From NCBI GenBank assembly GCA_965649765.1, contig OZ287756.1:56234001-56298000 (forward strand): a stretch of 64,000 nt of DNA, given 5' to 3'. Both the position numbers and the translations under genes were made by a program. The stretch comes from Bispira polyomma (lineage: Eukaryota). This document shows, one piece after another, positions 1 through 60,529 of the stretch (position 1 is its first letter; each line of letters opens with the position of its first letter). Below the pieces are notes generated by a model that was not told the DNA's origin, made no database searches, and saw nothing but the letters and a program-made list of their open reading frames with translations.

Positions 1-216
1 TTCAGGTCCACAGGATCGTGATCCAGAATGTGGAAGAGCTTCTTGAAGGCCTCCACAATAAAGATGAGTGCAATTAACAGGGCGAAGCTCTCTTCCGTGA
101 AGCGGGTGATGTAACGGACCAGGGCGCTCAGGTCAAACATCACCATGAAGAAGAGGATCAGAGACATCCACATACCAATCCAGAAGCGCAGAGACAGGTA
201 GTCCAGGCCATAGGTA
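1..216 (-). CDS. SLC4A10: SLC4 exon (TM4-5), runs off the window: [16 protein letters not shown]...[28 protein letters not shown]
   Basis: ctccctccag| acceptor, phase 2; ITRFTEE motif. Confidence 0.97.
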
Positions 217-3200
217 CTGGAGGGAGAGAGAAGAAAGCATTAAGGATCGGGCTATAAGGAGTGATTACAAAGTACAGTATGACCTCTATTATCTTACTAT
301 ATTGGGAGAAAGAATTTGTTTGGATAATAGAAGGTCCGTAAAATAGAAGGGCCATTTTAGTATGAATTAATACTAAAAAATCAGTTTTGTAAAATGGAAT
401 ATTTGGAAAATATAGGGACAATAGAGGTTCCACTTAATGCCTAGTCAAACTCCTTTAAAGTTGAACTCTGATAACTGGAATTACCTGTTAAGTAGAAGTT
501 ATTGTAAGGTCCCATTGCTATATTTCTAATTAAAATTTACCGTTAAGTAAAACCAATGTTTACGTTCCTTCCACCGGCTTTATATATTGATATAATTACT
601 TACCTGCAGAAGTTGTACACTATGGTCTCAAACACAAGCACAGGCCCCGTCGAGCCAATGATGGTGAGCGGCTGTCCCGAGAAGATGTGCCAGGATATGC
701 CACAGATGGCGCCACTCATCAGACTCTCCATAGCCGCCTGTGAAAGGGAGGAAATGGGGGGAGCGTTAATTATGGTTAATTAAGGTGTGTTACAGAACAT
801 CCTTCTAATAAATTTGAAGCAAAAAATAAAGTAAACCATGCTTATATACTTACATGCATATATAATACCATATATATCAGCCACTCAGTATCAATCACTA
901 TTATAGCGAATAAAATTTTCTGCAATTTCCACCAAACATATTATCGCATTTAATTGTGAAAATTTGTTTTTTTGTTTTGTGGCATCAAACTAGACCTGCA
1001 ACAAGTAGGTAGTTTTGTACCCGAGTATTCTTTTACCATTATTCGATTTAACAAGTACTCTGTTCTCGTTTTTCTTTAAAAAGTTATAGAAGAAAATGAC
1101 TCAATTGAGATCAATTTTATAAGAATATTTATAAAACTGTAAAACTGCTGACATCAAACGTGAACAGAGTTCTGTTTCTTCAAATGTTGTACTCCGATTA
1201 GTTGATAACTCTATTTTTGAACGAGTACTTGAGTAGTCTTTTACAGCCCTACAAATAAACACAGTGCTACAGTAAAATTGGCCTTCGACTGACACTGACG
1301 CACACACCCTTACACACGCACCACATCTACACTTACCCTTAGGGGTGAAACGGGTACCAAAAATGCAGCCCAAGTATCCGCAAGCATCTAACCATCCCGA
1401 CCGAATCCAGGTACCCACGAATATAGTATACACCAATCCCAGAAACCAGTCTAGCAATATGGCTGTTCTTGTAAACAAAGTCTTGTAAACAAAAACTAGC
1501 AAATATGTGGGCTAATATGGAAAATTAGGAAGAAAACGTATATATTACGTGCAAATATGAGGCCAAAGTTATTGTTTTCAATGAAGAAAACATAATATTT
1601 AATTTAGTTTATATTAGTTTATATTAGTTTTTAATAGACGTTTCAAGTACTGGAATATTAAGGATAGTGGTGGAACGATTGTCGGCAAACATCGATACGT
1701 CGGTCGAGATAGCTTATACTATCAAACATTGATCTCATAACGTCATTCATCGATTAATCGCTAAATACTGTTTCTAACTTTAACTACTAGATCTTTTTAT
1801 GTTCATATGTGATTTGAGATGGTTTTTAAGTCAAATAAAGCAATTTTTGTCAACTTTATATTTGTTTTCGTGTACCATCATGTTTACCGAAAGTTATATA
1901 GGTTAGCGGTAGATACTAAATGTCAAACGTTCGAATTTGACCAAATTCTTACCGGATCACAGCATATTCGGCCCGGGATGGCAGGATAAGTAACTTAATA
2001 CTCTATAACAATATAATTTTGTGTATAATCGATTTCAGGTTGATCATCGGTCGAAAAAATTAAGCAATTAATCGACCTGCAAAATCAAACCAATTCCCAA
2101 CACCAATTACGGATGTACTCGACAGTACTAAAATATCCCACCGTGTGCCGCCGGTCACCGATTACCTGTTCATAGCCCTACTTACAATGTTGTTGTCTGT
2201 TGCTGCTCCCAGAAGCCCCCCAAATGTGATAATTGGTGTGAGACAGGCAAAGTAGATGAAGAAGAAGGAGGCCAGACACTGGATGTCAATGGCGTCCTTG
2301 ATGTCACTTGGGTAGAATTGCAGCTTGCGCTTGACGTCTTGTACCAGGCCACCGAATAACCTGTGTATGTGTGAAAAGACACAACATGGAACAACTAATC
2401 TAATCAATTCTTTAATGGTGCTTAATCTCCGTATTCAGTAATCATGGACGGAAGAAAAAGGGTAGTTACCAGGAAGAGAGCCGGTGATGGTAAGACTGTG
2501 TTTGGTGGCCTGGTACAGGACATCAACTCTAAGCACTGGTCCTCTATATATATATCTGTCTCTATTCCATGTACAGACGGATATAGTAAAGACCAAATAG
2601 AGACGAATATATTCTAACTAGAGCTTACACTTGACGTCTTGTAACAAGCCCACGAATAACCTGTATTTGTAGATACACACAACATTGAATTTAGTTCAGA
2701 TTTTCGTCGCTTTCAACAGTTTAGATCATATCAAGATGGCCAAAGTCAATGGTGGAAGAATTTTTATTTTTATTTTATTTTATTTTTTTTTTAAATTGGG
2801 ATATTTAACGTACACTGTAGTACCTGTATAGGTTATATTGGGACGGGCAGTTGGAAATGCTGGAAGAAACACTGCATACAGTTGATCAAGGTTCTGCACT
2901 GAAACCAGCGGCCAACAGTAAGGAACTACCACCTTTCCCACATAGGCATCGACGGGATTCAAACTCACGCCGCCAAGAGGTGAGAGACCAGTGATTGTGA
3001 AGCGCAATGCTTCCTAACCACTAGGCCACCGTGGCCCCTCAATGGTGGAAGAAACCTGTGCTTACGCTTAATGTCTTGTACACAGGCCAACTTTAGTGTG
3101 AATATTCACGCACAGTTATAACAGTGCTGCGGATAACAGAAGATGTAATAATTACAATGAGTTCACTGTATTCTACTGGTCAAATGCAGTAGCAACTCTA

Positions 3201-6200
3201 TTATCAGAACCATGTTAGAAGAGACAGCAATATTTTGTTCAGATAATAAAATAGTTTCATAAAATAGAGAAGAAGACATTTTAGTATAATATATAAACAA
3301 TAGGAAACTCTAAATTTGGGAGAGTGAAATTGAGTTCATAAAAAATCAAAAACCTTTGGATAACTGAAGTTTTTGGCTAAAAATCAAGGTTTTAATGTAA
3401 TTGCAGAAGCACCAGTGTTTATAAATTTGCAAATTTTAGGTGAGCCAGGTATCTTTACAGAGTTGCTAGCCCATCTTGCTAGTAAATAAACTAAGATAAA
3501 TATTAAAAAAAATAAGACGATTGATATTTCAAAACAAATGTTTCTTACTTTATTTATTTACAAAAAATGCTTGATTTTATTAAAAAATTTAGAATTGCTT
3601 GCTTTACTGTTTAAATCTCTTTTGGTCTTTCTACTGTAGATAGTAGTCCATGTAGTTTCATCTATGAATATCAGTATAGAATATTGATTTTTTGCAGACT
3701 ACTGGACAGAGAACTTTCGGCTTGGGCTTGTAACTTTTAAGAGTTACCAGCCCGCTGGACATGTCAGTTTCACTGTGATAGTTTTCAAAGACTGTAATGT
3801 AACAGAGGCTGTTCATACCTGCCAGTTCTCTCTAATGTTGAGTCCCCATGGCCCTCACCCTCGGGTCCCCCGCCCCCATTTCCTCCCCCTCCGTCTGCGG
3901 CATCTTTCTCGCCCCCAGCCCCACCCTTCTCGTCCCCACCCCCGGTCCCGTTAGGCATGGTGTTGAGGTTCTCCGGCACCGTCGGCATCTTCTTGCGGCC
4001 CTCCTGCGAGGGGACGCTCTTGGGCGGCTCAATCCGGATGTTTGGGTCCCACTCTCCAGGTGGTAGCACCGTCACCTGATCCAGGAACTCGTCAATACCC
4101 ACCAGCAGGTCGTCACGCTTACGTGCCTTGTAGGCGATTTCATGGAACACCTAACAGTAGAGACAGAAAGTGTATGATATGGGACAGGAGGTAACCAACG
4201 AGAGTTATTTCACACAAAGTGAGAAATATTAAACCTTCAATTTAGCCGGGTTGATTGCTTCCAACCAATCAATCAATGCCTTACATATTATTTCCAACAT
4301 AGCAGCAATATCTGGCAGCACCTGACAATATTAAGCTGACACCCCTAAGTTTGGCCGGGTCGATTGCTTCCAACCAATCTATAAGATTTCCTAAGTTCCA
4401 ACATGGCAGCGCTTTCCAAAATGGCTGCGCACTTAAAAAGGGGCTCAGCCACTAAAATTGGTCCTAAACACTTCTGTTTAGTATTTATCATTGACAAGTA
4501 TTGTGTTAAATAATATGGCGGCTTTCTGAAACAAAATTATTAAGATAAAAAAATACCCAGATCTTCTAATATATTTTGAAATTATTATTCAAGCATGAAA
4601 ACTTAAAGTTAATGCTATTACTGCGCGAAAATGCATCTGTATAAGGTATTTTGTGAATGTTAAGCATTATGTGAGCGAATAACTATTACTTTCAAGGAAT
4701 TGAGTTGGAAATATGGACCCACCCACCACACCCATCCATAGACATATCCACACAGATACCTGGTCAGACATCGATGTAGCTATATCTGCCAATCTCGTAG
4801 TATCTGGTATATTTCCTTATTTATGTCACAAACAGCCACCCACTCACGCACACGCACACAACCACCCACCCACACAAAAACACCCCCTAGCCCCACCCAC
4901 CTCATCAGACATCAGTGTAGCTTTAGACCTGCCAATCTTGTGGTACCTTTCCTTATGTCTGGATACAAACACAACCACTTACACACACATACACACAGCC
5001 ACACACATACCCACACATACACAGCCACCCACACAACCACCCACGCACACACCCACCCACCTCATCAGACATCAGTGTAGCAATAGACCTGCCAATCTCG
5101 TGGTACCTCTCCTTATGTCCATGTGGCCCCAGTAAGATGAACAGGAAGCGTGTTGGTATGGGCACCTCTGTGAGGTCACCCAGGTGTGCCGACTTCTTGA
5201 GGCGGATAAAGCCCATGAGGGGCTGTTCCAGGAAGTCCACCTCCCCTACCATAATGTTAGAGGCCTCGGCTCCTGGGGGGAGCTTCTTGAAGAAGTGCTC
5301 ATTGAACTGGAAGTAAAATAAACAAAAATAAACACACATTAAAACAAGGTTGAGTTATTAATTTATTCAATAGTAACATCACTAATTAGAAGTGCAATGA
5401 GTAGTCGGTTAATCCCTCTAACCGAGCGGTTTGGCATGTGGCCTGACTCAGAAACAGGAAATGGATTACTCGCTAAGTTTACTTTTGACACACATACAAT
5501 ACATTAAACCATACATAAACATAAAATTATATATAACTAGACCTAGCGCATCGGAGAATGGATGCATATTTGTATCCACCAGAAGGACAAAGCACCCTAG
5601 GTAGAAAGCACCTTAGGTAGCAAGAACCCTAGCTAGCAACCAAGCTAGGAGCCAAGCTAGGAGCCTATGATTTCCCATTTATGCTAAAGCCTTAAATCGC
5701 ACAAGTGCAAAAATGTGGAACCAATAAGTATAAGATAGGCACTTTAAAGTTTGGCCTACCCATTTGACCTTGCACAAGGGATCCAAGGTCAAATTTGACT
5801 ACAGCAAAAGATTAGCCACCCATGATTTCCTATAGGTTGGTTTCACATCCCAAACCTTAATATTTTAATTTTTTGTGGTGATAGGGGTATTTCCTAGTAT
5901 ATTACCTTGTGCGTTGAGGGTACCCGACTCAAGTCACTGCCTTCTGTATCGACTGGAGAGAGGTGAGGGGCTGAAGCTTTTCTGTTAAAGGACGGGATTC
6001 CCTTCAGCCCTTCTATAAACCATAGCAACACAAAAAACACATGTCTCACACAGACAATATAATAAAAAAAATTTCATCTTTCAGTATGGCCGGCAGTAGT
6101 TAAGTAGCACCTTGCAATCAAGAGCTTTACAAAATCTATTGCATGTGAATCATGTGTCGCTGCATAAAAGTAGCTTTAACTACATCGAAAAATTTTTATA

Positions 6201-9200: not shown

Positions 9201-12200
9201 CTACTTAGCCAAAGAAAGCAGCACAGCGTTCCATCACATTGACACACACAAAGATACACAGAAAACAATAGCTTTACCTGTAAGACGTCTAAAAACACCT
9301 TGTGAAAAAACCACCTAGGAGATTGTGGTACTTAGTGTAACTTAGTGACACCCAACTTAGCCTGTTGTTATAACTCAAAATTAACCCTTAGCCAGCTAAC
9401 CCCTAATTCCTAACATTTGACACTTATAACATTTGTTTTGTCCTAGTCCTGAACCCCATTCTTTTGGAAGAGGAATCCTGTCCCCGAGCATGACAGTACC
9501 ACTAACTAAACGTAACAATATGTCTCCAATGGGGACGTGGAGGGCTGTAGTCCCAAAATAAGAAATTTGTACACAACCAGCTAGACTTAATTCAGTCTTC
9601 TTATTGAGGACACAATTTTAGATGATGTCATTTTATAAAGTCATCTGACGTAAAAAAAGGAAGGGTTTTTTTTGCTTCAGACAATGCATCTTGATTCTCA
9701 GCACACAAAATTCAACTACAGCAGAACCCTCATTATTCCAAATACAATATATTCCATTATTATGGACATACTTTCATCCTCCCACTTTTTCTAGGGCTGG
9801 GAAGAGTGGTAATTTTTGCACTCGAGTACTCTTTCACCATTTTACTTTCCTCTTCAACAAGTACTTTTTTTTAGCGATAAAAGATACAAAATGGCTCACT
9901 TTCCATTGAAATATATCAGAAATTGACTTATTGTCATCTGTATGCAAATATATACAAAAATATATTAATATTTACCCGGGAAGGAGTACTCTTTCCTCCA
10001 TTTTGCACTCTTAAAATATTCATTAGATACTCCATTCTTTAACGAGTACTCGAGTATTCTTTAACAGCCTTAAATTTTCTTCCCTAAATTCTTCTTTTAT
10101 ACTATTATAATATTACCTCTTGCAAATTTACCTGCAAAAAAATCACCTTTTATTACATCCGAATAGAATTTTTCTCTCTCTCAACATGTACGAATAATAG
10201 AGGTTCTACTCAATCTACTGTTTTATATATATTAAATCAGAGGTCCAATTTTCTTTGCTCACTGTAAGCCCCAGTCCCCCCCTCCCCCTTAACCACCACA
10301 ACCACCTTACATAGTTTATCTTGTGAGTGAATCTTTGTAAACCCCCCACAACCTATCATTATATCATCATGGAGGACACATAACATGGAAATATATGCTA
10401 TTAGGAGGTTATTATTAAGCAAAGGTTTGCGGAGGGTTTTTAAATTAAAAAAAAAAAAAAAAAAATAGGGAATGAAAGTAGGCGGCAAACCCAAAGCATG
10501 CGGCGTGGATTTCCTCCGTTTGTACTCAGCAGATGGACTGGTGAAATCTAGAAAAATAGGAAGGTAAAACCATACAGCTTTAACAACACCTGAGCAGCAT
10601 TATGGTACACTAACTAGTTCAATTATTTTTTTAAACAGTTTTTTTAATTTAAATATGTATCACTCATACTACACCAATTTAAATTAATATTAGTTGTTCT
10701 TGAACAGAAAACACCAATTTGTATCAAAAACACTGGCTTTTGGCTTTAATTTAATATAAACATTAAAAAATATGTAACAATCGTTAAATACAAAAAAACT
10801 ATATAAACATTCTGTCTTTTTGAGTTTAATAATGAAAAAGATTTCTTGGAGCCTAAGTGACCCCAAGAAGATAAAAAGCACAGTACTCGCCCTACTGGGC
10901 TCATATTACAAAGTTGATCTTCTTTCATCATATAATTTTTTTATTACACACTACTTGGATAGTTTTACTATTATATATTGTTAGCCCAAACAACCAGTCC
11001 TATCATGAGTTACAGAGTTATAGCAACCTCTAAAACACCACAGTGACCTTGTGAAGGTCACAGATTAATTGCCACCTGAGATAATTTAGTCAGTTTTTAC
11101 TTGCCACGCAAACACAAATCACCACCTAAAACTTTGTCGCCTGTATTAATCTAATTAATAATAATACTGTGCATAAAAGTTGAGATTTCAGTTGGAATGC
11201 AATGTCACTAAATTTACACAGCCAGGCATTTTGAAGGCAAAGATTCACTGCAATGAATATGCATCCTAAGTGGCCAACTGAGTGTATTTTAAGACATGTA
11301 TACTCATTTTAAATTTTCACACTAGATAATTTAAAGATTTTCACAAAGGAAAGTTCACTTCAATTCCAGCAAATTTATCCTCAAAATTTAAATAGCCAAA
11401 AAAATGTCCCCTTGCACTGAAATAACTATTTAATTACTATAATTCAAGTACAGATACACCAGGGCTAGTATTCACAAACTTAAGATTCTAAAATCTTTAG
11501 TCTCTATCAATTTCATTGGCTGAAAATAGTGTTTCAAATGAAAACATTTCTAAGAATTGCATTTTAATAATGTTTGTGAATATGTCCCCAAAACCTCCAT
11601 TATTATTCAAACTTCTTTGACCTGAATATTTCTTTTCGGGTACATATATGCTCTTTTATTACCAAAATTATATTGTGCTGTATGTTTTTTTTAAAATAGA
11701 GTATAAAATGTTGTTTTTTTTTATATTATTATAAGAATAAAGTCTCACTGCAAAGAGGTTTTGAAATAATAGAGGTTTTACTGTGTTTTATGCAAACATA
11801 TCAATGCATGTATAAATAGGCAATGTAGTTAAATATGAGAAGAACTAAACTGCAAATAAATATATATACCAAAAATCCATCCGTTATACAAGCCACTTAG
11901 CAGAATTTTTTTTTTCAAACAGAGCATGTTATAAAAAAGATAAACTGCCCAATATAGGAAGCAAAACCAAACAAACAAGTACAAGTCAGCTGGTCAATGT
12001 CCCTAGAGTAGAAGCTATAAATGTAGCACAGTGAAACAAGCACAGGAATGCCAGAATGGGCATTACTCTCAGCCCCCTCCTAAAATGCGAAACACAAGAA
12101 ATATACAGAAAGCGATCCTTGATCAAGTATGATGGATAACTGATATTTCTTTTTTCTTTTTTTTGACCATCAACATATCAGTGTTGTACAATACCATATG

Positions 12201-15200
12201 GGTCAGTATACTAAGCCCTGTAGAGATAGCTAAATGGAATTCCAGGTGATATCTTTTTGAAGTGAAAATTTACTTTGATGACCTCTGTTTTTGATCAATT
12301 TAACCCAAGGCTCAAAACAAGTGGAAAAGTTAGTAGATAAAAAGACAACTATAAGAATTGTCCATTTTTATCTTCTTCAGAGAGGTAATTAGTGTTGTGT
12401 TATTATTGTTGATGGTTGTGGTTAAACAAACAATCCTAATAATTTCTGTATCCTAATAAATCACTTGACACAGGATAAACATCAAAATCCATATTAGGAG
12501 TTATTTCAAGAAAAGACCATATTGGGACATACCAAGATACTTTTTTTACTCAAACAGAAAGCAATTAATTTGTGCATAGATACGTACATGCTACACAACA
12601 ATTTTGGTGGCCAAAGAGCCCAATCAATAAATACTGTCAGTATCAATGAACAATTTACCCAGTAATTCTTATGTCTATTTTGATGAAAAACTTTTATTTG
12701 AAAGATTTTTGCAGATGTAGAATCCTCAGTAAATTGATATAGAGTTAAGACGACCTTGAAACCACAGAAATTTGTCAGAAACAATCATTGTAAAAATGCA
12801 CAAATAGGCAAGAATTATCCACGCATATATATTACCAACTATCATCAATGAGAAATACTTGTAAGAGTTCCGCAGAGTTCCACCTCTCGGTATTATAGTT
12901 GTTAAGCAGGGTTATTATCTCAGCTTGATACCATATCAGAAGCGAACAGAAATTTTATTACCTCCCCATGACACCATATCAGAAGCTATCAGAACCGTTA
13001 ATATCTCTCCATGACACCATATCAGAAACTATCAGAAATGTTATTATCTCACCATGACACCATATCAAAAGCTATCAGAAACGTTAATATCTCTCCATGA
13101 CACCATATTAGAAACTATCTGAAAAGTTATTATCTCACGATTACACCATATCAGAAACATTATTATCTCATCTTGCCACCATATCAGAAGCTATCAGAAA
13201 CGTTATTATCTCACCATGACACCATATCAGAAACTATCAGAAAAGGGTTATGATGTTTGAATAGGAAAGAAACTCTCCGCACAACCCAAGTATAAATGAA
13301 TCCAGGGGCCGTATTCACCAGGAAACTCAAGCTCTTGAACTCAACTCCAATGATCGCTAGCTGTTAATTCACAGTACATGGAAATAACCTACACTTCTAA
13401 CAATGCATTTTAATACAAGCCTTCAGCGCTGAATTCAAATATGTCTCCACAATTTACCTACTATAGGTTTTATTCTGGCAAGAGATATGTGTACTGTTGA
13501 AATAGACAGTACTTAAACAGTGCCTTGGATTTGAGCTTGAGATTTTTCAGGAATACGACCACCCCAGAAGTATATAATGTAGAAGCTAAAAACTTAAGAG
13601 AAGAGAATATTTAGTACAGCAGAACCTTTTTTTACGGACATCTTGGGAGAGTGAGAATTTGTTTGGATAACAGAATGTCCGTAGAAAATAGAAGTGGCAT
13701 TTTAGTATAAAACAATAGCAAAAAATAAGTTTGGGAGACTGAAATTGAGTTTATAAAATCAAATATTCAGATAATAGAGTTTCTACTGTACACATGACAG
13801 ATTTGATATACATGTATGTATATATATGGGAGAGTAAAGAGTGAGCGTTAATGTCAAAAGCAATACAGGAGAGTTAACTTAAGGCTGTAAATCAGACCGT
13901 GTGAGAGGGCGTGGGGGGTGGACATTCTTCTGGAGTAGTTCATCATGCCATCTGGAACAGAAAACGGTATACGTATGTCAGAAGGGTGGTTGTACACGTA
14001 AACAACAACAGGCGTAAGTACACATAACGAGTTATTGCAATAATAGTGTATACACTATTTACTACATAGAATATTCATTATATGACAAAACTGCGTATTA
14101 TATTCATAACCATACAGTGAAACTTGCATATAAACATAAAGATCAGCCAAGGGAACCCTCCACAGTGGTCATTAAACTAGACTCCTTGCATATATGTCAC
14201 AAAACAAGGTCATATTAGTTTCTAGCAGTCCTGAGAGACAACAGTATTCTGAAGAATAACTTCTGATTAACAGCAATGTCAAGGTAATTGCCTGAAAACA
14301 ATTACCTATATTAACTGTCTTCATTGTTAACACGGTATATGTAAATTATGTGCGTAATCGGGTACATTATTAAAGCAGCATTTTGAGCATCATGGCTGAA
14401 GGCAATTAGTCCAGGCCATTCTAGGTTTTAAAATTGGCTGCCAGGTGTTTAATTAAATATAAACAGTGGCTGCTGTTTATATTTTTGTGGTGAAAGCAGA
14501 TAGTGCAAATCGCCTTCAACGCACAATTACCTCCACAGCTTCTAAAATCTCTGAAAACAAAATCCCAAACATGCTCAAAAGAACTTTTGGTTGGCTTGGC
14601 TCTCTCACTGAAACTGTATCTATATCAATATAACAAAGTTACAACAACCATTCTGTTACAGTTGAAGAAAACTATTATATATAACGTACATGCACACACT
14701 AAAAGAACAAACAACCAACTTTATACACTGAAGCCAGGAATTCATCTGTCATCCACTATATACATATACTGAATCAGTCTAAAAGAAAAAAAAGAATTCA
14801 GAGAAAAACGATGCACAGGCATACAGCATGCAAAGATCATTATGAAGTACACGAACATAAAGAAGTCATGTAGAACTGAAGAGTTGTCTTTGAAAACTTA
14901 AGCTGAAATCTAAGCTATCTACCCTATCTCTGGTTAGAGGGACGTGAAGTAACATCTGACTGCATATTTGGGAGTCCCTTTTATATAGCCTTCAACTGAG
15001 TTGAGTCAGTAGCTTACATATTATTAATAGCAGACAGCTCTTATAATAATGGTGCAATACAGTATAATACGTCATAACTTATTATATGTATATCATACGT
15101 CATAATACGTCATACTTATGTATATTTATATTACATTTGGAAATCAAACCTAAAAATCATAATCATTCCTATTGGTACAGCTTTAAACATTTCAACATCC

Positions 15201-18200
15201 ACCAAATTTAGCAAAGGTTTTTTTAATGTAACTAGTAGGATAAGGTTAAATATGAAGAGGCTTTTTTTCAAGATGGACGCCAAAAACAGACGCATTCCAA
15301 AAAATTGTATCATACTCTTTTAAATACCCCAACAAGAATTAGGCCAATAAGACTCCATGTTAAAAAGGTGCCATGACCAAAATATGGTTGATGTTGCATC
15401 AAAACTGTAGCCTGTACAGTGTTGAAAAGAGGGTGCTGACGACAGCAACGGCATATTCAGGCGTAATCCAAAATCATAATATACATGAAGATTTCTTGTG
15501 ATTATTATGGCGGTTGGACCACGGGTAGACTTTTGAGAATATGACACACAAACGCGATGAATCATGCAGACTTAACACAACTGGATCAAAGCAAAACAAC
15601 ATCCACAGTCAGACTTCGAGTATGAAAGAAAACGGTCACCCGTCCACAAACACTGTTCTGTAACATTATATATAGGCTTTAAAAGAACAGACTCTCCAAC
15701 AGGAAACTGATGCAAACTTAGCACAAAAAAAGGCATGCAATTAATATGGCAGAACTTATAAACATTACCAAGGTTTTGTTAAAGAAACTCAACCAGATAG
15801 CTTAGAAATTTCACTTCATCCTTGTATACCCCTTGCCAATTTGTGACATGCACCCTCTGAGCGGGCAGAACAATGCAAAGCTGCAATATTTAGTACCTGC
15901 TCAAAACTGGTCTACAATTGCACCCAAAATGAGCTTTCTCCAGTCAAGAGAAAGTCAAGACTTTCGCAAAACATCCTTGGCAACTCACATGCCAGCCCAT
16001 AACTCAAGGCAAACAAAACTTGACATAGTGCACCTTCTTAATATGGTGTTAAATATGAAATCAGCTTGGCCGTTGGGGTGATACAAAAGGAGGAAGCTAA
16101 ATGTGCTTAAGGCTTTAGTGATGTAAACACAAAAAACGATCGCCGCTAAACCACGTTGTGAAGGAATCACTGTCTAGAAACATACACTACATTGTTATAA
16201 AGGCCTCAAAGTCAATTTTTAAATACGATTTTTGCTTTATGAGTTGTGAAAATGATAGAGGACAGATTAAATAACAATTCAAGCTGAATTTTATAAATTT
16301 TAACACTGATTTTAACAATTTATCAGCAGCAAATACTATGTATAAGAAGGTGTAAAATTGTAACAAAAACATCAATATTTGTCCAAGTACACCCTCCACA
16401 AACGTGACACAATACACATACCAAGAAGGTATTAATACTGAAATATTGTACATGACTAGAAAAAGGAAAACATTAGCAATATTTTGAATGAATTCGTTTT
16501 TTCATGAAAGTACAAAAACGGGGATAAATAGAAAAAACATTAAAGTTACACTCTTCTGAACAGAACGATACTTTGTATTCTTCGTTTAAAAAACATAAGG
16601 AAACATATTTAAAAATGTAATTCATTCAAAACAATATACACGTTCTATAAAGTTGTGTAGTATATATAATATGTTTATATATGCTGGATCAATACTCGTA
16701 TTGTGTCACAATAGACGGGGCTCTCTGCGAGAATTGTCTACAAATATGACGTTCTACCACAGATTTCAAATCGTGTGACGTCACAATACAAGAATCGTTA
16801 TACGGCTTTTTTATTAACTATGCAATAAAATAATGAAGTTTTAAATAGTATTTGAATATAAAAATATGTAAAACGATCATTAAATAACCATTTTATGACT
16901 GCTGTAGTAGGTATATGTGCTAAAGTTACAATTCATAAATGCAATATGATTTATCGGCAACGTGTTTGTGTGTTTACGTTACTAAAGCCTTAATTAATTA
17001 ACTAATGCCATAACACAGGGAACGCTTAATAAAACATGGCTGCCTCAGCAAAACACTAATCTTATATATCTTAATGCTTAAGTAAAAACGATCATATCTA
17101 TGATGGAGTAGCAGTAAACAACAATTGTAACCACGGCAACACGTCACCTTTTCTTTTTTTAAAAAAAACAAAACAATTAAACGAGGAAGAAAGGGGAAAA
17201 AAAACCTGCAAGCATACAAGACAGACAACATGGAAAACCTGGGAAACTGTCACCAAGACGCTTGTCCGAGGGGTGATGGGCCCCGTGGTTGCCATGGTGA
17301 CCACCGTGGTGGTGGTGGTTGTTATGGTGGTTGCCATGGTCATTGCTGCCATGAGAGGATGTGAAGCTGTGGCCCTCTGGTGAGTGAGAGACAGACAAAC
17401 AGAAAGAGTTTACAAAGTCAACATAATGTGTGTCTGTTTATGGTCATTTTAGGGGGTTTGGTTTAAAGGGGGTTTGGTTTAAAGGGGGTTTGGTTTAAAG
17501 GAAAAAGAAAAAGGTAGCGAAATCTAAATGTTGCTTCCAATTAGTATCATTATTATCACATGAATTTAGTTTGGGGTTTACGTGGTTTTTAACAGCTTTG
17601 ATCATTTCAAGACAGTCAGATTTAATTTTAATGGTGGAAGAAACCAGTGGTGAAGCACTGTAGACTACTGACCTACAGCAAGTACCTCACAAACTATAGT
17701 ACATGAAGGAATGAACAGGATTCGAACCCACATTGGTGAGAGGCCAATGATTGTGAGGCAGGCACTTCTAAACACTAGGCCATTCAATGAGATTCCTAAT
17801 ATTGCACTAAAGTCATAAAACTAGCTAAATTTCTGCTCAAATGAAATAATTATACAGCGCTCTGCTAACGTATGATCCTCTCACTTAAAAGCACTTTTCT
17901 GTTCAGAAGGGATATCAAGATCATTTAGATCTCAACCCTCTAGTTTCCAAAGAACTTGTACAAAAAAATCTTGCATAGCCAACTGTAAGTAATGATATTG
18001 TCAATTTTTCAGACATGAACACAATGTATAATGATGGTTGAGTTTATACTCTTGATCAGCAATAAAACAAGGGCTATTCATTTTAACTAAAGTGTGTCTA
18101 TAAGTATGCACATTTACACATTTACAATGATTTGCTAGCTAAAAAACCACTCTGTCCTTTGTAATAGGTACCATTAGTAAAACCAAAGCATCACACAATG

Positions 18201-21200
18201 AGGCAGAAAATCAGTCTGGGGGGCAAGGTCAGAGGAGTAAACCTGTAAAGTTAAAGACTTTGAAATGACTGACACTCAGTATTCTACAAGTCATAATGTG
18301 CCAATGTACATCATGTAGAATCAATATACCATGTGGATGGTGTGGAGCTAATAAAAAAATAATTAAAAATTACCTGGCGAGACATTGTCGGGATGTTTAT
18401 AATACACGTTTGGGATCAATAATTGATATGCCCAACATACTCTCATTCAGAGTGTGCCTAAAAGAGTGAGGATGACTATTAAAACGTTTACTCTGTTATG
18501 TACATATCTATAATTATATTGATATGCAAGGTGTGTTTCAAAGGGTTGTTGGTGTCTTACATAGGTCACTGTTCTTGGTTAATCGATGGAAACTAGAGGG
18601 TAAATTGTTTGGGTTGATGTACATCGATATCGAACATAAAATTACTTCAATATCTGCCGACAATGGGACAGAGCAAGAAATTTGTGAAGAAACTAGAACA
18701 AATCTAAAAAAAAAAAACTTATCTAATTAAAACCGAAAGTGAGAAACCGCTAAATATGTTTACAAATAGGCATTGTCATAAAATGGTTATAATTCATTGA
18801 TTAAAAGCTATCAACCTTACAATATGATTATAATTGTTGTAAAAATGTTACCCCAAGGAGAAATATGTGTCATTTATGATATCGATGTGTTGGCATTTCA
18901 CCTCCATATCGGAAGACAGAAGCCCAAACAATAAATATTGCCGATATCGATAAACAACTAGAAAACGGCTTTTGATAACAAAAACGAAGCGTCGCTAAAG
19001 TTGAAATAATAATGAAATTGTTTAGTGTACAAGGTTTGATATTGTTTAAAAGTTGACACATAAGGAGTACTTTTGGTCAATGTAAGCTCGAAAAGGATCA
19101 CCATTTCCGAGATAACAGACGTTTTCTAAAAAGACGCAGAAATTGAAGATGGTTGCCCAAATCAAAAATTACTATAAAAATTTACATAAAAGAAAAATCA
19201 GCCCTATGAGTCGAAAAGGAGCTTGAAATCGCTCTATCTAGCACCGTTTCTGAGATAAAGGACATTTTCGAAAAAGACGCAGAAATTCAAGATGGCCGCC
19301 AAAATGTAACATTTTTTTAAAAGTTTAAATATAAGCAAAATCAACCCCGTTGATTGAAAATGAGCTCAAAATCGGTCTATCTAGCACCGTTTCCAAGATA
19401 AATGACATTTTCGAAAAAGACGCAGAAATTCAAGATGGCCGACAAAATTAAAATTTTTTTGAAAGATTACATATAAGTAAAATCAACCCTGTGGATCAAA
19501 AATGAGCTCGAAATCGCTCTATCTAGCACCGTTTCCGAGATAACTGACATTTTCAAAAAAGACGCAGAAATGCAAGATGGCTGCCAAAATTGAAATTTTT
19601 TTAAAAGTTTACATATAAGCAAAATCAACCCTGTGGATCGAAAATGAGCTCGAAATCGTTCTATCTAGCACCGTTTCCGAGATAACTGACATTTTCAAAA
19701 AAAACGCAGAAATTCAAGATGGCCGACAAAATTGAAATTTTTTTAAAAGTTCATGTATAAGCAAAATCAACCCTGTGGGTCGAAAATGAGCTCGAAATCG
19801 CTCTATCTAGCACCGTTTCCGAGTTAACGGACATTTTCGGAAAAGACGCAGAAATTCAAGATGGCCGTCAAAATTGAAATTTTTTGAAAGATTACATATA
19901 AGTAAAATCAACCCTGTGGATCGAAAATGAGCTCGAAATCGCTCTATCTAGCACCGTTTCCGAGATAACTGACATTTTCAAAAAAAACGCAGAAATTCAA
20001 GATGGCCGACAAAATTGAAATTTTTTTAAAAGTTTACATATAAGCAAAATCAACCCTGTGGGTCAAAAATTAGCTCGAAATCGCTCTATCTAGCACCGTT
20101 TCCGAGATAACGGACGTTCTCGAAAAAGACGCAGAAATTCAAGATGGCCGCCAAAATTGAAAATTTTTTAAAAGTTTATGTATAAGCAAAATCAACCCTG
20201 TGGTTCGAAAATGAGCTCGAAATCGCTCTATCTAGCACCGTTTTCGAGATAACGGACATTTAAAAAAAAACCTTAATTTTTAAAATTTTTGAAATTAAAA
20301 TCGTTTTATATCAGTTAACGATCGCATATTTTTGGATGGGGTAAAAAATAAATAAAAATTCAAGCTATTCTTTAAAAGTTACGCGCTGCATGTACTGGTC
20401 TAAAATTAAAAATAAAAAAAATCCTCACACGCTCAAAAAAGCACCCATCAACACATTTTTTTCCCCATTTTGTATGATTGAACGAGCCTGTCAATCAGTC
20501 AATTATCACCAGATTGATCTAAAAATTTACGGACATCTATGCTTTAGTATTTGCAATGTGCATGCGAAATTTCATTGAACTATGACAAGTACTTCAAAAG
20601 AAAAGTTGATAAAAGTGCAAGATAGAGCAAAATAGAGCAAAATACTCATTTGAAGTACTCAGTACTCATTGAGTACTGGACTTAGAACTGTGAAATTTTT
20701 ACATCATACATAAAATCAAAAAGTAGATGAATAACTTATACCAAGAAAAAGCCGAAATCCCAATAGTTTCCGAGATAGCAAAAAAGTACCGATTTTTCGC
20801 ATTTCAATAAAAATCAATCGGTTGGCAATCAGTCAATTGTCATCCGATTAATCTCATCAGTGTCTCCCGTCCTGAAAATTACCTTACCAAGGTACAAACC
20901 AAATTTCATTAACCTATGATGAATACTTTTTGAGAAAACCTAGTGACAAGCACTTTTACACCCCCCAGGGTCAACTGACATTTAAGTAGGCCAAAGTTCA
21001 AAGCCAAGAATATGAAAAAAATTTCCCACTCCTGGTTAAGAGAACTGCCAAAAATAATTTTGATGCAGATAATATTGAAGGAGATATTCAAGGAAGACCA
21101 TGCGGCGGCGGCGAGGAAACCAGGGGTGAAACCAAATAAGCGCCCTTTTCAAGGGACGCTTAATTAACCCACTAATGGAAACATTGGGCTTTAAAAGGTG

Positions 21201-24200: not shown

Positions 24201-27200
24201 AAAAACCAGTTCAACCAGTTTGTTTATCTAAATAAAACAAGTTACAACCTGTTAGCTGTCTTCCAAAACAGTTGTTGAAGAATTAATTTCTAAAGTTTGA
24301 CTAAATGTAACCATACAAAAATTTAAATGAAATTTTTATCTTTCTCAGCATTATTGCTCCTAACTCATTTCTGTGCCTTATTCTAGTTTTGTTTACTGTA
24401 TAAATTCCACATGTTAAAGGATCTACAAAACTTTGTTTTAATTTTCTTCCTAAAATTCTTGTCATTTTCTTTTTTAAAAACTAGTTAAAAACTTGTTGTC
24501 GGTTGGTTTTTGCTAAACCAACAACAATCATGGTTTAAGAAAATTCCAAAGTAACTGCAGCTCTAAAAATAATCTCACAACGATACATGTATATGTGTAA
24601 AAATGAATAAAAACAATACAACCCAACCACAACAACGGAAACATTTAAGTTAAACCACTGGTAACTATTGTAACTATTGCCAAACGAAAATCTACACCCA
24701 AACTTTGTGCCACCATACAAAAAGAGTACTGAGTTACTACACTGATGTTCGGGTCATAATTATTATACCGCTTTGTCGAATTTTTTTCTTCTCACACAAA
24801 ACATGGATATCAACTGTGTACTAACATAGATCCGAAAAAAAATAATAAATAAATAAATATAGATACTAGTACTATCTGCTGAAAAGAATCCAATATAACA
24901 TGTGTACCCACAGAAGAGAACTAGTACTTCTAATCTACATTCAAAAACATTTATAATTGTAGAATTGTCACGAGTTTCCCTGTCACCTGACACACATTAA
25001 ACCCATCACACAATTATTATACAACATCCTTACCTTTGGGTTCCAGTTGCTTGGAGGAGTGTCGTTTGCCAATATCTGCAAGGGAGCGCACCATCGACAT
25101 CCCTTTACCTGGAGAAATTTTTTTTAAAAAGACAAAAAGATCACTTAAAGAGTATGGGACTGTGTGTATTGCATGGGTGAGACAGGGCACTCTCTGGTAC
25201 TCAATAAGGAGCCCAATTTGTTGGGAAACCAAAGTGAAACTAGCGGGTACTCAAAAACGTACAGTTTTACAGTTAAAATCTCGACAACCATCTACCTGTA
25301 AAACAACCAGACAAAAACAACACTTGAAGAGTAGGGCTATGGCTGTGTATTGTGCTTGAAAATCTTATTGCGATATATTCCAGTTGCATTCGATATTCAG
25401 GTATTGCAATTTATTATCCACTCAGCCGTGAAATACAGCAATTTGGTGTGTAATACTTCAATGTGTTGTTGCACCCTTATTGAAGAGGTTTAAGCATCAA
25501 CCAGACTGAGGCTCTAAGAGTGATTCCCAAACTTTTCACTTTATTTTTCTGGATCATGGTAATTTCTTTTAATACTTTTTTTTGGGGTTGTAAAATTGAT
25601 GTAGCAAATGATGGCCAAGCAGGTAACACCCTTGCTTAGGAATACAGAGGACCTGGGTTTCAATCCCAGCCTTTGGGGAGTGACAGGTACAGGTAGATGT
25701 ATAGTGGCTCAGATGACCACTACAAAGTGGCAGAACTCTTGTGAATGGGTCCTATCACCAGTGGCAGGCTAAAGAACCTCGCATTGACATTGACATGAAT
25801 TCGAAAGTTGCGTCATTCACAAGCCTCTATCTTCAGTAAGAGGAATAATAACAGTTAGTGGTGTGAGTTTGCATGATTGACACTTTACAAGGGATTTAAT
25901 CCCATCCAAGTTGAGATCCTACCTCCAATACCTAACTACCAACTTGAATTTAATTAAGGGTTCTATGTCGCTTTCAAAAGCTTAGATCATATCAATGACA
26001 GCCATATTCAATGTTGGAAGAAACCAGTGCTAAAAAGCCATTGTAAACCAATGGCCTACAGCAAGTACCTGACAAACTTACCCACATAATATAGTAACAA
26101 AATGGATTCAAACCCACATTGCTGGGAGACGATAGTTATAATAAAGCAGGAGTTTCTAACCACTCGGTTACCACGGCCCCATACTATCCTTGAATTTCAA
26201 GCAGTATATATGAGTGTTTGGACATATTGTGTTTACCTTAAAAGTGATTTTCTAATTAAAAAAAAATAGTATAATACCTGTAAAATATTATTAAAAATTT
26301 TATATTGTGTAAGACAAAAAATTGTAGTTTTAAATGCTTTAAGAACATAAGCTATATGTGTATTACATCTCCTTAGGAGGATAATCCCGAGCTGAAGCAC
26401 GGTAAACCACAAACCTACAGTAAGCACCTGACAAACTTCCCCAATGAGGGAACGAATGTAATTCAAATCCACATTGGTGGGAGACCGGTGATTGTGAAGC
26501 AGGCGCTTTTAACCACTAGGTCAGTGCAACAGCCCCTAGCTATATCTATTTTACATCTCCTTTAAGAGGTTAATCCCCAGCAGGCCGATGTCCTAACACT
26601 GACCTTCTTTCTTCTGATGCTGATGTCTGTGTTTGGCCATTAACACGTCAAACGTCTGGTCTTTGTACTCAATGTTCAGGTGATTGCCAGCAATCATACA
26701 GTCCAGAACCATGTCTGCAAAAATAAAAATCAAGCCCAATATAAGACATAATACAGTGTCTGAACAAGGTATGTGTAAAAAAAACAGGTCACATACACTG
26801 GTGGCATAAGTATTGCAGTAATCGAAAACCGGGACGTAAAAACAGGAATGACATCCGGTATATTTTGTTTAATATCACAGTCTTCTGGTAAAACGTATAC
26901 CAGGTTTACATGAGTTATACCTTCCAACAGGAACTGACAGCTCAAAAACCTTTGAAACTCATAAACATTTGTTTCTTATAAGCGTAAGAATTAAATAAAA
27001 TTTTAATATTTTGATATGATAAGTGTAAAAAAAAGTAAAATATAAATATTTTGGAAGAATTCTAGTATTCCCCCTCACGTGTACGAATACATCTATTACC
27101 ATATAGGGATATTTAAATAACCCCCCTAAACCCAAACCCTCAGTTTAAGTGTAAAATATATTAAGGCTAAAGAAAGATGGCTCACTCCCCTAACCCTAAA

Positions 27201-30200
27201 AAAACACATTGCCTTCAACAATTATTTTCTTGGGGTACTACTTTTTAAAATAGTAGAAGTGAGGGGGGAATTCTAGACCTTAGCCAATATTTTTGCCAAC
27301 CATGCCTGAATGCACCGTACCTGAACACCATTAACAACACTAACACACACACTAGAGATGGGAGTCATATTCAAAATGATAATCGATCGGTGGGTAACAT
27401 ACGATCGAAAAATCAATTAATTGTATGACCTTGATTCAGGTGATGGCCATCAACTATATAGCGTCTGTTAGGGTGTCAGACAAGTTCATATTTATGCAAT
27501 GAAAAGAGACGTTTACACAGACAGACATTCACCAACCACTCACCGACTATAGTGTACAAGTCATTAGCCTCCATGTCTAACATGACTGTCCCCGACAGGA
27601 TGCCTTTCCTCAGTTCAAACAGCGAGTGCAGTGACAATGTGGCCACGTGGGGTTTAGACCAGCGCTCTCCACCTTCTTCCACATCTTCTTCAAACTTCAC
27701 CCACCTGACAGAGACAATTATAGTATAATGGCAGTCAGGGGTCGATGTTTCACAAAATATGGTGGTAGTCTGCAGACTACCTAATTTTTAGTTTTGGTAG
27801 TTTGGTCTACAAGTCTCTGTACAGGCCTCCTAAAATACCTCAACCTATATCTCACCCCTTACTCTCAGCAAGTCAATACCCGTCGTGGTAATCCTAACAA
27901 ATATATTTCTCAATGTTCCTACCTTTGATCGCAGCATAATAACACAGAACCAAATTCCATTTTAATCGTAGTTTGTCATGCACTGCACCTAAGTTATGGA
28001 ATGACTTACCACAAAATGTTAGATGCTGGCTTTCTCTTTCGAATTTTAGAAGTAAGCTTAAGACCCATCTCTATCAAAATGCTTATCCCTCCTGACACGG
28101 TCTTAGCATTACCGACTGTCTCCCTGGTAATTACCCCTTTTCCGTCCACCATAACATGATTACTGAAGAACGATTCTGATTTTTTTGCGCCTTAGAATCT
28201 ACTAGTTCAGAGATTAGATGCCATTACCGAATTGATTTGATTAGATTAGATTAGTCAAGACCAAAATTTGATGGTCAAGCTTAAATATAGTCAATTTGGC
28301 CATCAATACTTTTATTACGAGGATGAAACATATTTTGTACTTGTTATGACATTGTAATATACCTGCATCAGTAAAGGAGTAGAGTATTCAAGAGTTTTAT
28401 TGGGTTTAAAAAAATTTAGCATTAATGAGAGATTTCTGTTGTCTTTGCTTCTATGTAAACATCATATTTTCTATGTTATTTAAAGTGAAGGTAAAATTTT
28501 TGCCAATGAATTTTAAATTTAATGAAGCAGTCTGTCGGACTACAGTTTGCAAAGGTTTTGGTAGTCTGTTTCAATTTTTAGTCATCTGAAACTACCAGAC
28601 TACTGTATACATTGACCCTGATGAAGGTCGTACCACTTTCCAGGATTTTAAAAATGTTGTGTGTATATATACCACCGCTGTGCCTTGCTCCCACACTAGT
28701 TTTTGTTTTTACCTTGCTGTTTTTAGCCTTATTAATAGTATTTATCTATCACGGCTGTGCCACACTTAACTGACTGTGTGTGTTTTTATCTGGCTGTCTT
28801 TAGTAATACTCCCACATGTTTTTACCTGGCCATCTCCTTCCACTCCATGTACCACACTTAAGTGACTGTCAGTTTTTACCCCTATTAGTACCAGTGTTTA
28901 TCTATCACCCCTGTGCCACACTTAACTGACTGTGTGTTTTTACTTGTCAGTTTTCAGCCTTATTTTAAGTGTTTATCTATCACCCCTGTGCCATACTTAA
29001 GTGACTGTATGTGTTTTTACCTGTCATTTTTCAGCCTTATTAGTACCAGTGTTTATCTATCACCCCTGTGCCACACTTAAGTGACTGTATGTGTTTTTAC
29101 CTGTCAGTTTTAAGCCCTATTAGTACCAGTGTTTATCTATCACCCCTGTGCCACACTTAAGTGACTGTGTGTGTTTTTACCTGTCAGTTTTAAGCCCTAT
29201 TAGTACCAGTGTTTATCTATCACCCCTGTGCCACACTTAAGCGACTGTATGTGTTTTTACCTGTCATTTTTCAGCCTTATTAGTACCAGTGTTTATCTAT
29301 CACCCCTGTGCCACACTTAAGTGACTGTATGTGTTTTTACCTGTCAGTTTTAAGCCCTATTAGTACCAGTGTTTATCTATCACCCCTGTGCCACACTTAA
29401 CTGACTGTGTATGTTTTTACCTGTCAGTTTTAAGCCCTATTAGTACCAGTGTTTATCTATCACCCCTGTGCCACACTTAAGCGACTGTATGTGTTTTTAC
29501 CTGTCATTTTTCAGCCTTATTAGTACCAGTGTTTATCTATCACCCCTGTGCCACACTTAAGTGACTGTATGTGTTTTTACCTGTCAGTTTTAAGCCCTAT
29601 TAGTACCAGTGTTTATCTATCACCCCTGTGCCACACTTAACTGACTGTGTATGTTTTTACCTGTCAGTTTTAAGCCCTATTAGTACCAGTGTTTATCTAT
29701 CACCCCTGTGCCACACTTAACTGACTGTGTATGTTTTTACCTGGCCGTCTCCTTCCACTCCATGTCGTCCCCGTCAGTGCGGAGCTCTTCCATCTCACAG
29801 AACACATCGTGCGCCTGATGGTCGTCGTCCTCCTCCTCCTGGCCAAGGATGAAGGCCACGCGCTGGGACGGGGGGGTCGCTACAAGGGAAAGAGAGAGAG
29901 ATAAGATGTAAGTTAGAAACACAGCTAAAATACTGAGACACATTTCATGGTCCATAGCTATAAATACCATCTGTTGTGTTTTATCACTTTTTAATTATCG
30001 GAAAGACATTTAACTTCAAAATATATATTGTACAAAAATAGGAATCAGTTGGTCTTATTTATTAGACCTGATCGATCTAATTACCTTCTGTCAATCTACA
30101 TCCCAAACACATTGTCCGAATTCAATGAAACACCCTCAAATTAGAGACACATTTCGAGACCGGACCTAGTTATTTTGTGTAATTAACACCGCCTTTGTTA

Positions 30201-59466: not shown

Positions 59467-60529
59467 TACTAAGTGGTTCGGCTGAAAAGTTTAAAGACTT
59501 ACGCGAAATATCCTCCTCGCCGATGTGGCCGCGTGCAAAGGACCCCCGGTCCCTAAGCGGCTGGTCTTCCATCTCGTTAGACATGTTTTCTCTCTTCCTC
59601 AGTTACCAGGGTCACTCTGTCAAAGCCTGTAGAACATTCGGGGTGGAGAGGCGTCTGCTTGTAATGTATTCAAACTCACGGTCACGTTCGGCTATACTTC
59701 AACCTTTACTTTATATGTTTTTATGGGTTCAGCACCGATGCCAAATGTAATCACACCTTTTTTCCAAACCACAGACCAACTGCAACAGTACTGTCTATCC
59801 AAATGACTGCAATCGCTTTTTAGGCACTGTCGGTTCTGCTACCAAAAGCTGTTGGCAACTTTGCAAGTACTAAAATGGAAGGTATATAGAGTTCGCCCGA
59901 CTCTTTTCAAATTGAAGTTTCCTCTGTCAGAGCTATATGGAGAACTATATCTATATATATATAGACACTTTAAGCAAGCAGAGACGTGTTGAACTGTTGC
60001 TGCTGTACAGCTGTCCAAAGCTCCCAATGTGGCTGGATATTTATCCTAGTGTACAATACGCGCACATACGGTACATTCACCTCACCGGCGACATCCACAA
60101 GAGAATCCTCAATGAAGTCCGATTTTGTCAGTAAGTTACCCAAGGCTGTGTGAAAAAAACAAGCGTGCGCAACTCTTCACAAACAATCTTGTCCAATGTG
60201 TGCGTCAGGTCCTCCGATTAAGTGAGTGGCACAAAATATTATCTGTGTGGTGTTTTTTTCACCAACAAAAAACTCATTCTTTTTAAAGTTTGTTTTTGAA
60301 CTAGTGTGTATTGTCCCAGCAGCAAGTGGTCACCTACTAACCAACTGAACGTTGTGGTTTTTAAGGAGACTCACAGATGCATTCAAAAGCCTCAGCTTCT
60401 TCAGAAGGAAGATCCAGCGATTACCTAAGATAAAAAACAAATAAGCAAAAAATTATATTGTAGCGATGTTTAAGTTTAATTTTTAAGGTGAACAAAATTA
60501 AGTCTAAACTTTTCTTTGGTTGATTAGTA
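59467..60529 (-). mobile_element. Highly decayed mariner-like DNA transposon
   Basis: tacta...gaaaagttta(a)agactta inverted ends; remnant SSPYSSD peptide (cf. mariner PYSPDL) on the minus strand. Confidence 0.4.

Follow-up and report, generated by a model that had tools for sequence, protein, structure and literature searches.

Tandem duplications across three splice junctions of an SLC4 transporter gene are of the mirage type and typical for their genome

Tandem repeats whose unit runs across an exon-intron boundary have been described as mirages in amphioxus, where Adh3, the globin genes BflGb6 and BflGb9, troponin C and PGBD5 contain them; the available portions of these reports document variation in length, somatic instability and undisturbed splicing, describe the mechanism as unclear and contain no rate at genome scale (PMC3087553, PMC3902484). 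Minisatellites at splice junctions are also known from human genes, namely the 37-bp variable number tandem repeat in intron 7 of F7 and those of 6-16, CBS, lamin B2 and PDGF, and the accessible part of that account states that F7 splicing uses the most upstream donor only, extra sites being used in 6-16 and CBS (PMC1557585). For the GC-rich human minisatellites MS32, MS205 and CEB1, an origin as by-products of local meiotic recombination via synthesis-dependent strand annealing (SDSA) has been proposed in the available text (PMC2599865). The current study concerns a 64,000-nucleotide stretch (the window; C9:56234001-56298000) of a 1.035 Gb animal genome which carries the 5′ half of an SLC4 bicarbonate-transporter gene, three exons of which possess copies of their own edges, here termed echoes, in the adjacent intron. 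These echoes display the structural features of mirages, i.e. a boundary-spanning unit, local head-to-tail intronic copies and duplicated splice signals, and they are members of this class already described from amphioxus and human genes.

An earlier note on the window had reported junction-spanning copies at exons 2186-2360, 5061-5306 and 29741-29879 (cases 1, 2 and 3). The exons and their coordinates were borne out by tblastn and by a Band_3_cyto match, and all three sets of direct copies are real tandem duplications across splice junctions (Table 1). The inverted copy that had been listed with them at the first exon did not stand as such, as the inverted piece 2501-2526 consists of exon sequence only and does not cross the junction; it lies in a fold-back that involves the intronic copy (arms 2502-2562 with 2600-2656; fold z −3.3, with 0 of 200 shuffles as good) and is no independent junction echo.

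The copies of case 1 lie at offsets of 300 nucleotides (nt) and, across an insertion, 737 nt, and the direct copy 2622-2689 holds a weak decoy acceptor (score 4.8 versus 7.0 at the real site). The insertion itself (2761-3053) is of very high copy number, resembles a short interspersed nuclear element, is bounded by a 15-bp target-site duplication (2746-2760 and 3039-3053) and shows high repeat depth at 2809-3042. The offsets of case 2 are 160 and about 300 nt; its proximal copy carries a decoy donor identical to the real one (9.7) and a newly formed acceptor (8.7), which together bound a predicted, frame-shifting pseudo-exon of 58 nt (4901-4958). Copies of differing age are present in cases 1 and 2. 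In case 3, with an offset of 80 nt, the unit opens with 3-4 exon bases followed by the donor, and the decoy donors of the two scored units both reach 9.1, the same as the real site. The exon tail 29741-29765 recurs at 28826-28850 with 24 of 25 bases identical (96%), the 25-nt tail surviving in this distal copy only. One distal donor decoy has lost its GT.

Chance likeness was rejected, as 0 of 1,091 shuffled exon-end probes reached the score threshold. Assembly error is ruled out for cases 1 and 2 by contigs of other sequencing runs: those of X1 and X2, which derive from one sample, span 2394-2755 and 4355-5493, those of X3 span 2399-2755 and 4560-5448, and no letter differs except for a skipped repeat at 4965-5064, although these contigs may stem from the assembled individual and may drop variants. 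A transposon origin of the units is not supported. A genome search that skips very common words returned no match for the 80-bp unit beyond its own array, and for case 1, where 40 of 1,091 candidates were scored, the exon-derived parts had no match elsewhere, dispersed sequence being confined to the flanking pieces 2387-2501 and about 2682-2760.

At an echo threshold of score 40, the window holds three echoes on 24 junction sides, or on 28 when two putative cassette exons are counted, the next-best side scoring 34. This is ordinary for the genome. In a sample of 29 genes, comprising 18 dynein heavy-chain loci (20 were detected), the rest of the SLC4 gene and 10 ABC-transporter genes (722 introns, 1,444 junction sides and about 0.9 Mb of intron), an echo was detected at 163 sides (11.3%; 76 donors and 87 acceptors), namely at 124 of 1,108 in the dynein and SLC4 genes and 39 of 336 in the ABC set. 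Three of 24 sides has a probability of 0.52 under this rate and of 0.03 under the 2.8% expected with no enrichment. The suspicion that three cases were non-random proved justified for the genome sample, where junction events exceed the intronic expectation in two gene families, and unfounded as to anything special about this window. The observed/expected ratio (O/E) of junction events was 3.9 (95% confidence interval 3.1-5.1), or 3.3 (2.6-4.2) with heavy deletion, and 4.1 in the ABC set alone; the expected number combined the frequency of clusters in deep intron (107 in 314 kb) with simulations of uniform tandem duplication in which the exon copy was constrained and both indels and large deletions occurred. 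When GC-rich deep intron served as the baseline (23 clusters), the ratio was 2.8 (1.8-4.5) or 2.4, and offset-based nulls gave 1.6-2.3 relative to all intron. Raw ratios of 4.8-8.3 were discarded as too high because they ignore the true unit length and the slower decay of the anchor.

The junction excess sits in amplification to arrays and hardly in pairs. For arrays of three or more copies the O/E was 12.6 (8.5-19) or 10.6, compared with 1.65 (1.13-2.38) or 1.37 (0.94-1.99) for pairs. Three or more copies were present in 107 of 160 junction clusters versus 35 of 107 deep clusters (P = 5e-8; odds ratio 4.2) and, at offsets of 40-150 nt, in 82 of 118 versus 13 of 51. Among intronic clusters, 60 had an end no more than 15 nt from a junction, where about 15 were expected, and by 60-100 nt the number had returned to background (15 versus 20 expected). 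Of 124 copies, 120 lie on the junction's own intron side, and there is a weak polarity in exon-likeness, the copy nearest to the exon being more exon-like than the farthest in 37 cases, less so in 18 and tied in 13 (P = 0.014). Junction-crossing clusters cover 6.0% of intron bases, junction-touching clusters 2.1% and other tandem clusters 3.1%; no clear case of an intron made end to end of exon-derived units was found among 70 intron-cluster overlaps read by eye.

Echo rates differed among genes, from 0 of 66 to 11 of 34 sides (P = 4e-6), and rose loosely with the GC content of intron outside the duplications (rho 0.44, P = 0.023, uncorrected for the six covariates compared); in the sampled genes they were not linked to CpG ratio, repeat fraction, intron size or chromosome position. 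The echo-free genes, dynein D03 (C6:20.5 Mb; 0 of 66), dynein D12 (C5:30.3 Mb; 0 of 64) and ABC gene B4b (C9:33.66 Mb; 0 of 38), have introns among the GC-poorest. In the downstream exons of the SLC4 gene itself (window-relative −8748 to −19043), three further junction clusters were observed, one of which copies a whole 73-nt exon 1184 nt away at approximately 75% likeness.

We are highly confident that the mirage class and the junction enrichment hold. Our overall reading, in which we place somewhat more belief than doubt, is that the three echoes are mirage-type junction duplications, likely harmless, whose over-representation is likely due to preferential re-copying of exon-anchored units. 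The process would begin with the head-to-tail duplication of 30-150 nt containing the exon end and the adjacent intron end, such that the intact exon stays in place and the copy falls in the intron, as is evident in the arrangement described above. The spliceosome would keep to the exon-adjacent site, decoys being tolerated and decaying as neutral DNA, as F7 and the amphioxus genes suggest. Junction units then grow into arrays of at least three copies much more frequently than units inside introns do, as the cluster counts display, and slower anchor decay and higher GC may contribute roughly 1.5-fold each. Finally, SDSA-type repair or conversion may start or end in the conserved, GC-richer exon and re-copy the anchored unit, a step on which we are evenly divided. 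Gain-biased homology-dependent repair or gene conversion at exon edges would be the cause, a proposal with balanced chances of being right or wrong; repair of this type is favoured because of the analogy with human GC-rich minisatellites, as set out in the accessible part of that work (PMC2599865). The data call for repeated gains at the edge, with which the greater exon-likeness of the nearest copies, the differing ages of the copies in cases 1 and 2 and the wide variation among genes accord. A gain bias must be assumed, as a higher exchange rate alone lowers the total.

A number of results weigh against preferential re-copying. With the exchange rate at edges raised five-fold, the toy model yields more arrays (odds ratio 2.5-2.8) and fewer copies in total. 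The rank correlation of likeness with distance is weak, 20 of 37 arrays having a negative value. The youngest pairs (at least 95% alike) are scarce at junctions (4 of 53 versus 17 of 72 in deep intron), which gives no sign of a higher frequency of first duplications there. The deep-intron baseline may also be too low, depressed by unmasked young repeats; repeat content is about 0.1 close to junctions and increases to 0.48 in the depth of introns. The strongest such result stems from the per-window comparison, in which 40-nt exon ends and intron windows were searched for a copy within 2 kb. Taken literally, this check, which the earlier note had proposed, contradicts an excess at edges, as a copy was found for 105 of 1,091 exon ends (9.6%) and for 1,424 of 9,037 unique intron windows (15.8%). 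Intron windows count the source and its copies alike, so the test leans against enrichment, and it points the other way because 987 of the 1,424 intronic matches belong to clusters crossing or touching a junction and are junction-seeded arrays. Removal of junction-seeded clusters leaves 437 of 7,860 windows (5.6%), or 180 of 2,005 (9.0%) at a GC content of at least 40%, i.e. the rates become similar once GC is matched (9.6% versus 9.0%).

The rival explanation that survives best would dispense with any preferential copying: duplications would arise evenly and junction copies would simply persist for longer, given an anchor that can neither mutate nor be deleted, the purging of exon-damaging contractions, the proneness of GC-rich units to repeat and the young, repeat-derived nature of deep introns. 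The equal GC-matched rates above and the repeat content of deep introns are consistent with it, as are the deep-intron event rate, which approximately doubles with GC (from 24 to 57 per 100 kb), the mere 1.4-1.65-fold enrichment of pairs (one interval reaching 1) and the lack of enrichment among young pairs; echoed donors are moreover stronger (9.9 versus 8.6; P = 2e-4), as a tolerance filter might give. However, the 3.3-3.9-fold excess persists when slower decay of the anchor and its shielding from deletion are simulated, and a selection-only birth-death (ratchet) toy model with a fixed anchor and purged harmful contractions produced 1.4-1.8-fold with no shift to arrays (array odds ratio near 1 versus 4.2 observed), both being simple models. 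The excess fades within about 60 nt of the junction and not over hundreds of bases, and GC-rich deep units are seldom arrays (7 of 19). Retention as the sole explanation thus appears rather unlikely. The earlier note's related suggestion of a survival filter accounts for the copy-poor exon interiors (17 of 1,273 with a copy, versus the 105 of 1,091 exon ends) and falls short as the full explanation, reaching at most 1.8-fold alone in the toy model.

Less probable again, and in our view improbable, is that the duplications originate in transcription- or splicing-coupled damage at exon borders (R-loops, polymerase pausing or strong U1 binding), whether or not a GC/AT step is present. The sharp junction focus, the greater strength of echoed donors and the involvement of both donors and acceptors would all suit such an origin. 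Yet pairs, i.e. first duplications, are barely enriched, and the GC/AT transitions that the earlier note had nominated as the trigger were rejected in that role: matched GC steps inside introns echo in only 26 of 1,133 (unique; 2.3%) and 56 of 1,375 (repeat-derived; 4.1%) cases versus the 163 of 1,444 junctions, and stronger GC contrast brings no higher rate at junctions, the quartiles giving 12.2, 12.2, 11.3 and 9.4%. In this sample, neither GC/AT steps nor a simple survival filter would seem enough to account for the excess.

Selection of the copies for a function, whether in regulating splicing, in recursive splicing or as a stock of future exons, is very improbable, as splice dinucleotides decay like neighbouring bases, the predicted case 2 pseudo-exon would shift the frame, case 1 is interrupted by insertions and a fold-back, and amphioxus mirages are, in the available text, reported not to disturb splicing (PMC3087553, PMC3902484), even if 487 of 580 copies retain a site that scores above the 10th percentile of real ones, a partner site accompanies 158 copies at 47 junctions (in 95 of these, at 30 junctions, the length is a multiple of three) and the proximal case 2 copy is itself a predicted pseudo-exon. 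In the first 19 genes, decoy GT/AG were kept as often as neighbouring bases (44 of 50 versus 46 of 50, and 46 of 53 versus 45 of 53); decoy sites thus look neither purged nor preserved, and the retention counts gave no sign of selection against them. A spliced contig of a relative (X4) follows the normal junctions; it is recorded as ‘DNA?’, was read as RNA-derived because its exons are joined, and covers exons. No RNA data set was listed as containing positions 1-6100 of the window. Since so many copies keep a plausible site, 158 of them with a partner, the potential for pseudo-exons is wide, and the idea of echoes as a raw source of new exons holds as a potential only.

As an ancient success of that kind, the earlier note had put forward a pair of YxRRxSTPHAL exons. 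These two cassettes are alternative exons which are situated in one intron and share 8 of 11 residues (common motif RRxSTPHAL). Tandem whole-exon duplication can yield alternative cassettes. In keeping with such a history, both exons are short and of phase 1-1, share the motif and occur each alone in a relative's transcript or protein; they differ from it in lying 3.4 kb apart and in having no significant DNA likeness, the alignment score of 17 not exceeding shuffles (95th percentile 23; 500 shuffles). The pair would in any event represent whole-exon duplicates and not edge echoes. An old whole-exon duplication is, in our estimation, the fairly probable source. In the Lineus SLC4 protein P0021, residues 322-380 hold four consecutive RRxS motifs in a variable region matching the cassette region, which hints at repeated motif duplication there.

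The predicted SLC4 exons encode 1153 residues without a stop, exon 5061-5306 matches PF07565 (Band_3_cyto), and the nearest relative, P0002, contains Band_3_cyto and HCO3_cotransp. In a quick tree the protein groups with annelid sequences, apart from those of molluscs, arthropods and amphioxus (support for the annelid grouping modest, 87-93), and from this placement the host is likely an annelid. A histidine-rich open stretch that follows a good acceptor in the variable N-terminal region (about 17249-17374, minus strand) and is skipped in the X4 contig is a candidate third cassette exon, and two further minus-strand stretches are possible alternative 5′ exons, namely a third RRxSTP-like stretch directly upstream of the predicted start codon (59590-59660) and an intronic, GC-rich open stretch with an RRSRS motif (52453-52591). 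Also intronic are, on the plus strand at about 34876-37627, frames resembling an endonuclease and a reverse transcriptase, which from their motifs we take to be those of a long interspersed nuclear element (LINE)-type element. A 142-bp tandem array of 8 copies (19099-20261), of high depth in another run, probably belongs to a dispersed element.

Table 1. Features of the SLC4 locus, with positions within the window.
Feature	Position	Strand	Basis
SLC4 bicarbonate-transporter gene (NDAE1-like), 5′ half in window		−	tblastn, Band_3_cyto match
SLC4 exon, first transmembrane exon, acceptor duplicated	2186..2360	−	tblastn, boundary placement; normal splicing in X4 contig
Case 1 source unit, across acceptor: 39 nt exon + 31 nt intron	2322..2391	−	
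Inverted fold-back arm, pairs with 2600-2656; contains exon-only piece 2501-2526	2502..2562	+	
Case 1 direct copy, 56/70 identical (80%)	2622..2689	−	
Case 1 third copy, partial, of exon start; shifted by insertion	3060..3089	−	
Case 2 distal copy, older, 66/89 identical (74%), decoy donor 6.6	4719..4805	−	
Case 2 proximal copy, offset 160 nt, 109/132 identical; 59 nt exon tail at 93% + intron head	4828..4959	−	
Case 2 source unit, across donor: 59 nt exon + about 70 nt intron	4991..5119	−	
SLC4 exon, Band 3 cytoplasmic domain, donor duplicated	5061..5306	−	tblastn, domain match
Cassette exon, 57 nt, phase 1-1, 11-residue motif	10491..10547	−	X4 contig: spliced alone between 25034-25108 and 5906-6012
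Candidate cassette exon, 54 nt, phase 1-1, 11-residue motif	13898..13951	−	motif SRRMSTPHA alone at same place in protein P0002
Case 3 decayed distal units, including 25-nt exon-tail copy 28826-28850 + intact decoy donor	28706..28872	−	
Case 3 minisatellite, 80-bp unit, 11 copies, abutting donor	28866..29743	−	
SLC4 exon, N-terminal domain; donor is first unit boundary of minisatellite	29741..29879	−	tblastn

Junctions in the three gene families were predicted by homology, and a homology-only pass returned the textbook splice consensus. Of 744 candidate introns in the first set, 551 were kept and three were added by hand; 168 of 204 were kept in the ABC set, which joined the analysis once the first set had shown enrichment, and the refined rules for clusters were applied to both sets together. 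The per-window probes covered the first 19 genes, those with more than 25% simple repeat or of mixed class being removed. The event test was based on clusters of direct local repeats, for which 350 kb of shuffled DNA gave 0 matches at score 20. Repeat masking was built from a 2-Mb sample only.

The contribution of this study lies in the rate of junction echoes, at 11% of sides in two gene sets, and the placing of the excess in amplification, earlier accounts of mirages having proceeded gene by gene; in the literature consulted (mostly non-subscription papers, without supplements) we found no genome-wide count of junction-spanning repeats and no report from an annelid. With such measurements, population and recombination data could be used to test how mirages arise. 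It is a tentative generalisation that repeat amplification via recombinational repair has gain-biased hot spots at the exon borders of this animal, the same junction being hit again in distant phyla. If so, junction-seeded arrays would make up about 70% of the intron DNA that is locally duplicated and not of transposon origin, and about 8% of all intron bases, and mirages would constitute a general, measurable engine of intron growth and spare splice sites, beyond lancelets.

As regards amphioxus, the available descriptions of its mirages agree with the present echoes in that tandem boundary-spanning units of 10-160 bp occur at donors or acceptors, often keep GT/AG and have decayed terminal units, and the globin units of 150-160 bp match the 160-nt offset of case 2 (PMC3087553). 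The echoes differ in their likely annelid host, in one case with a fold-back inversion and an inserted element, and in having been read from genomic sequence. In the amphioxus gene model P0001 (B. floridae, UniRef C3YF00), about residues 350-470 hold six tandem copies of the 20-residue end of the exon that is orthologous to 5061-5306. This repeat is likely, judging from the protein sequence, a mirage at the same donor that was taken up by gene prediction, and the coincidence is weak evidence given echo rates near 10%; junction copies can mislead gene predictors and read mapping, as P0001 suggests.

In the accessible account of F7, the first unit takes in the final 4 bases of the exon together with the beginning of the intron, and generates a row of identical pseudo-donors, in close parallel to the 3-4 exon bases of case 3, although the unit is of 37 bp as opposed to 80 bp. 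The human junction minisatellites described in that source are single loci with tested splicing, whereas the present figure of 163 among 1,444 sampled sides was read from genomic sequence. Should the SDSA-type step hold, the arrays would share with the human GC-rich minisatellites, as portrayed in the available text, their growth by SDSA-type conversion beside a recombination-active site; like all echoes of this sample, they were read from sequence, and they differ from those minisatellites in their longer units and in their anchorage to an exon.

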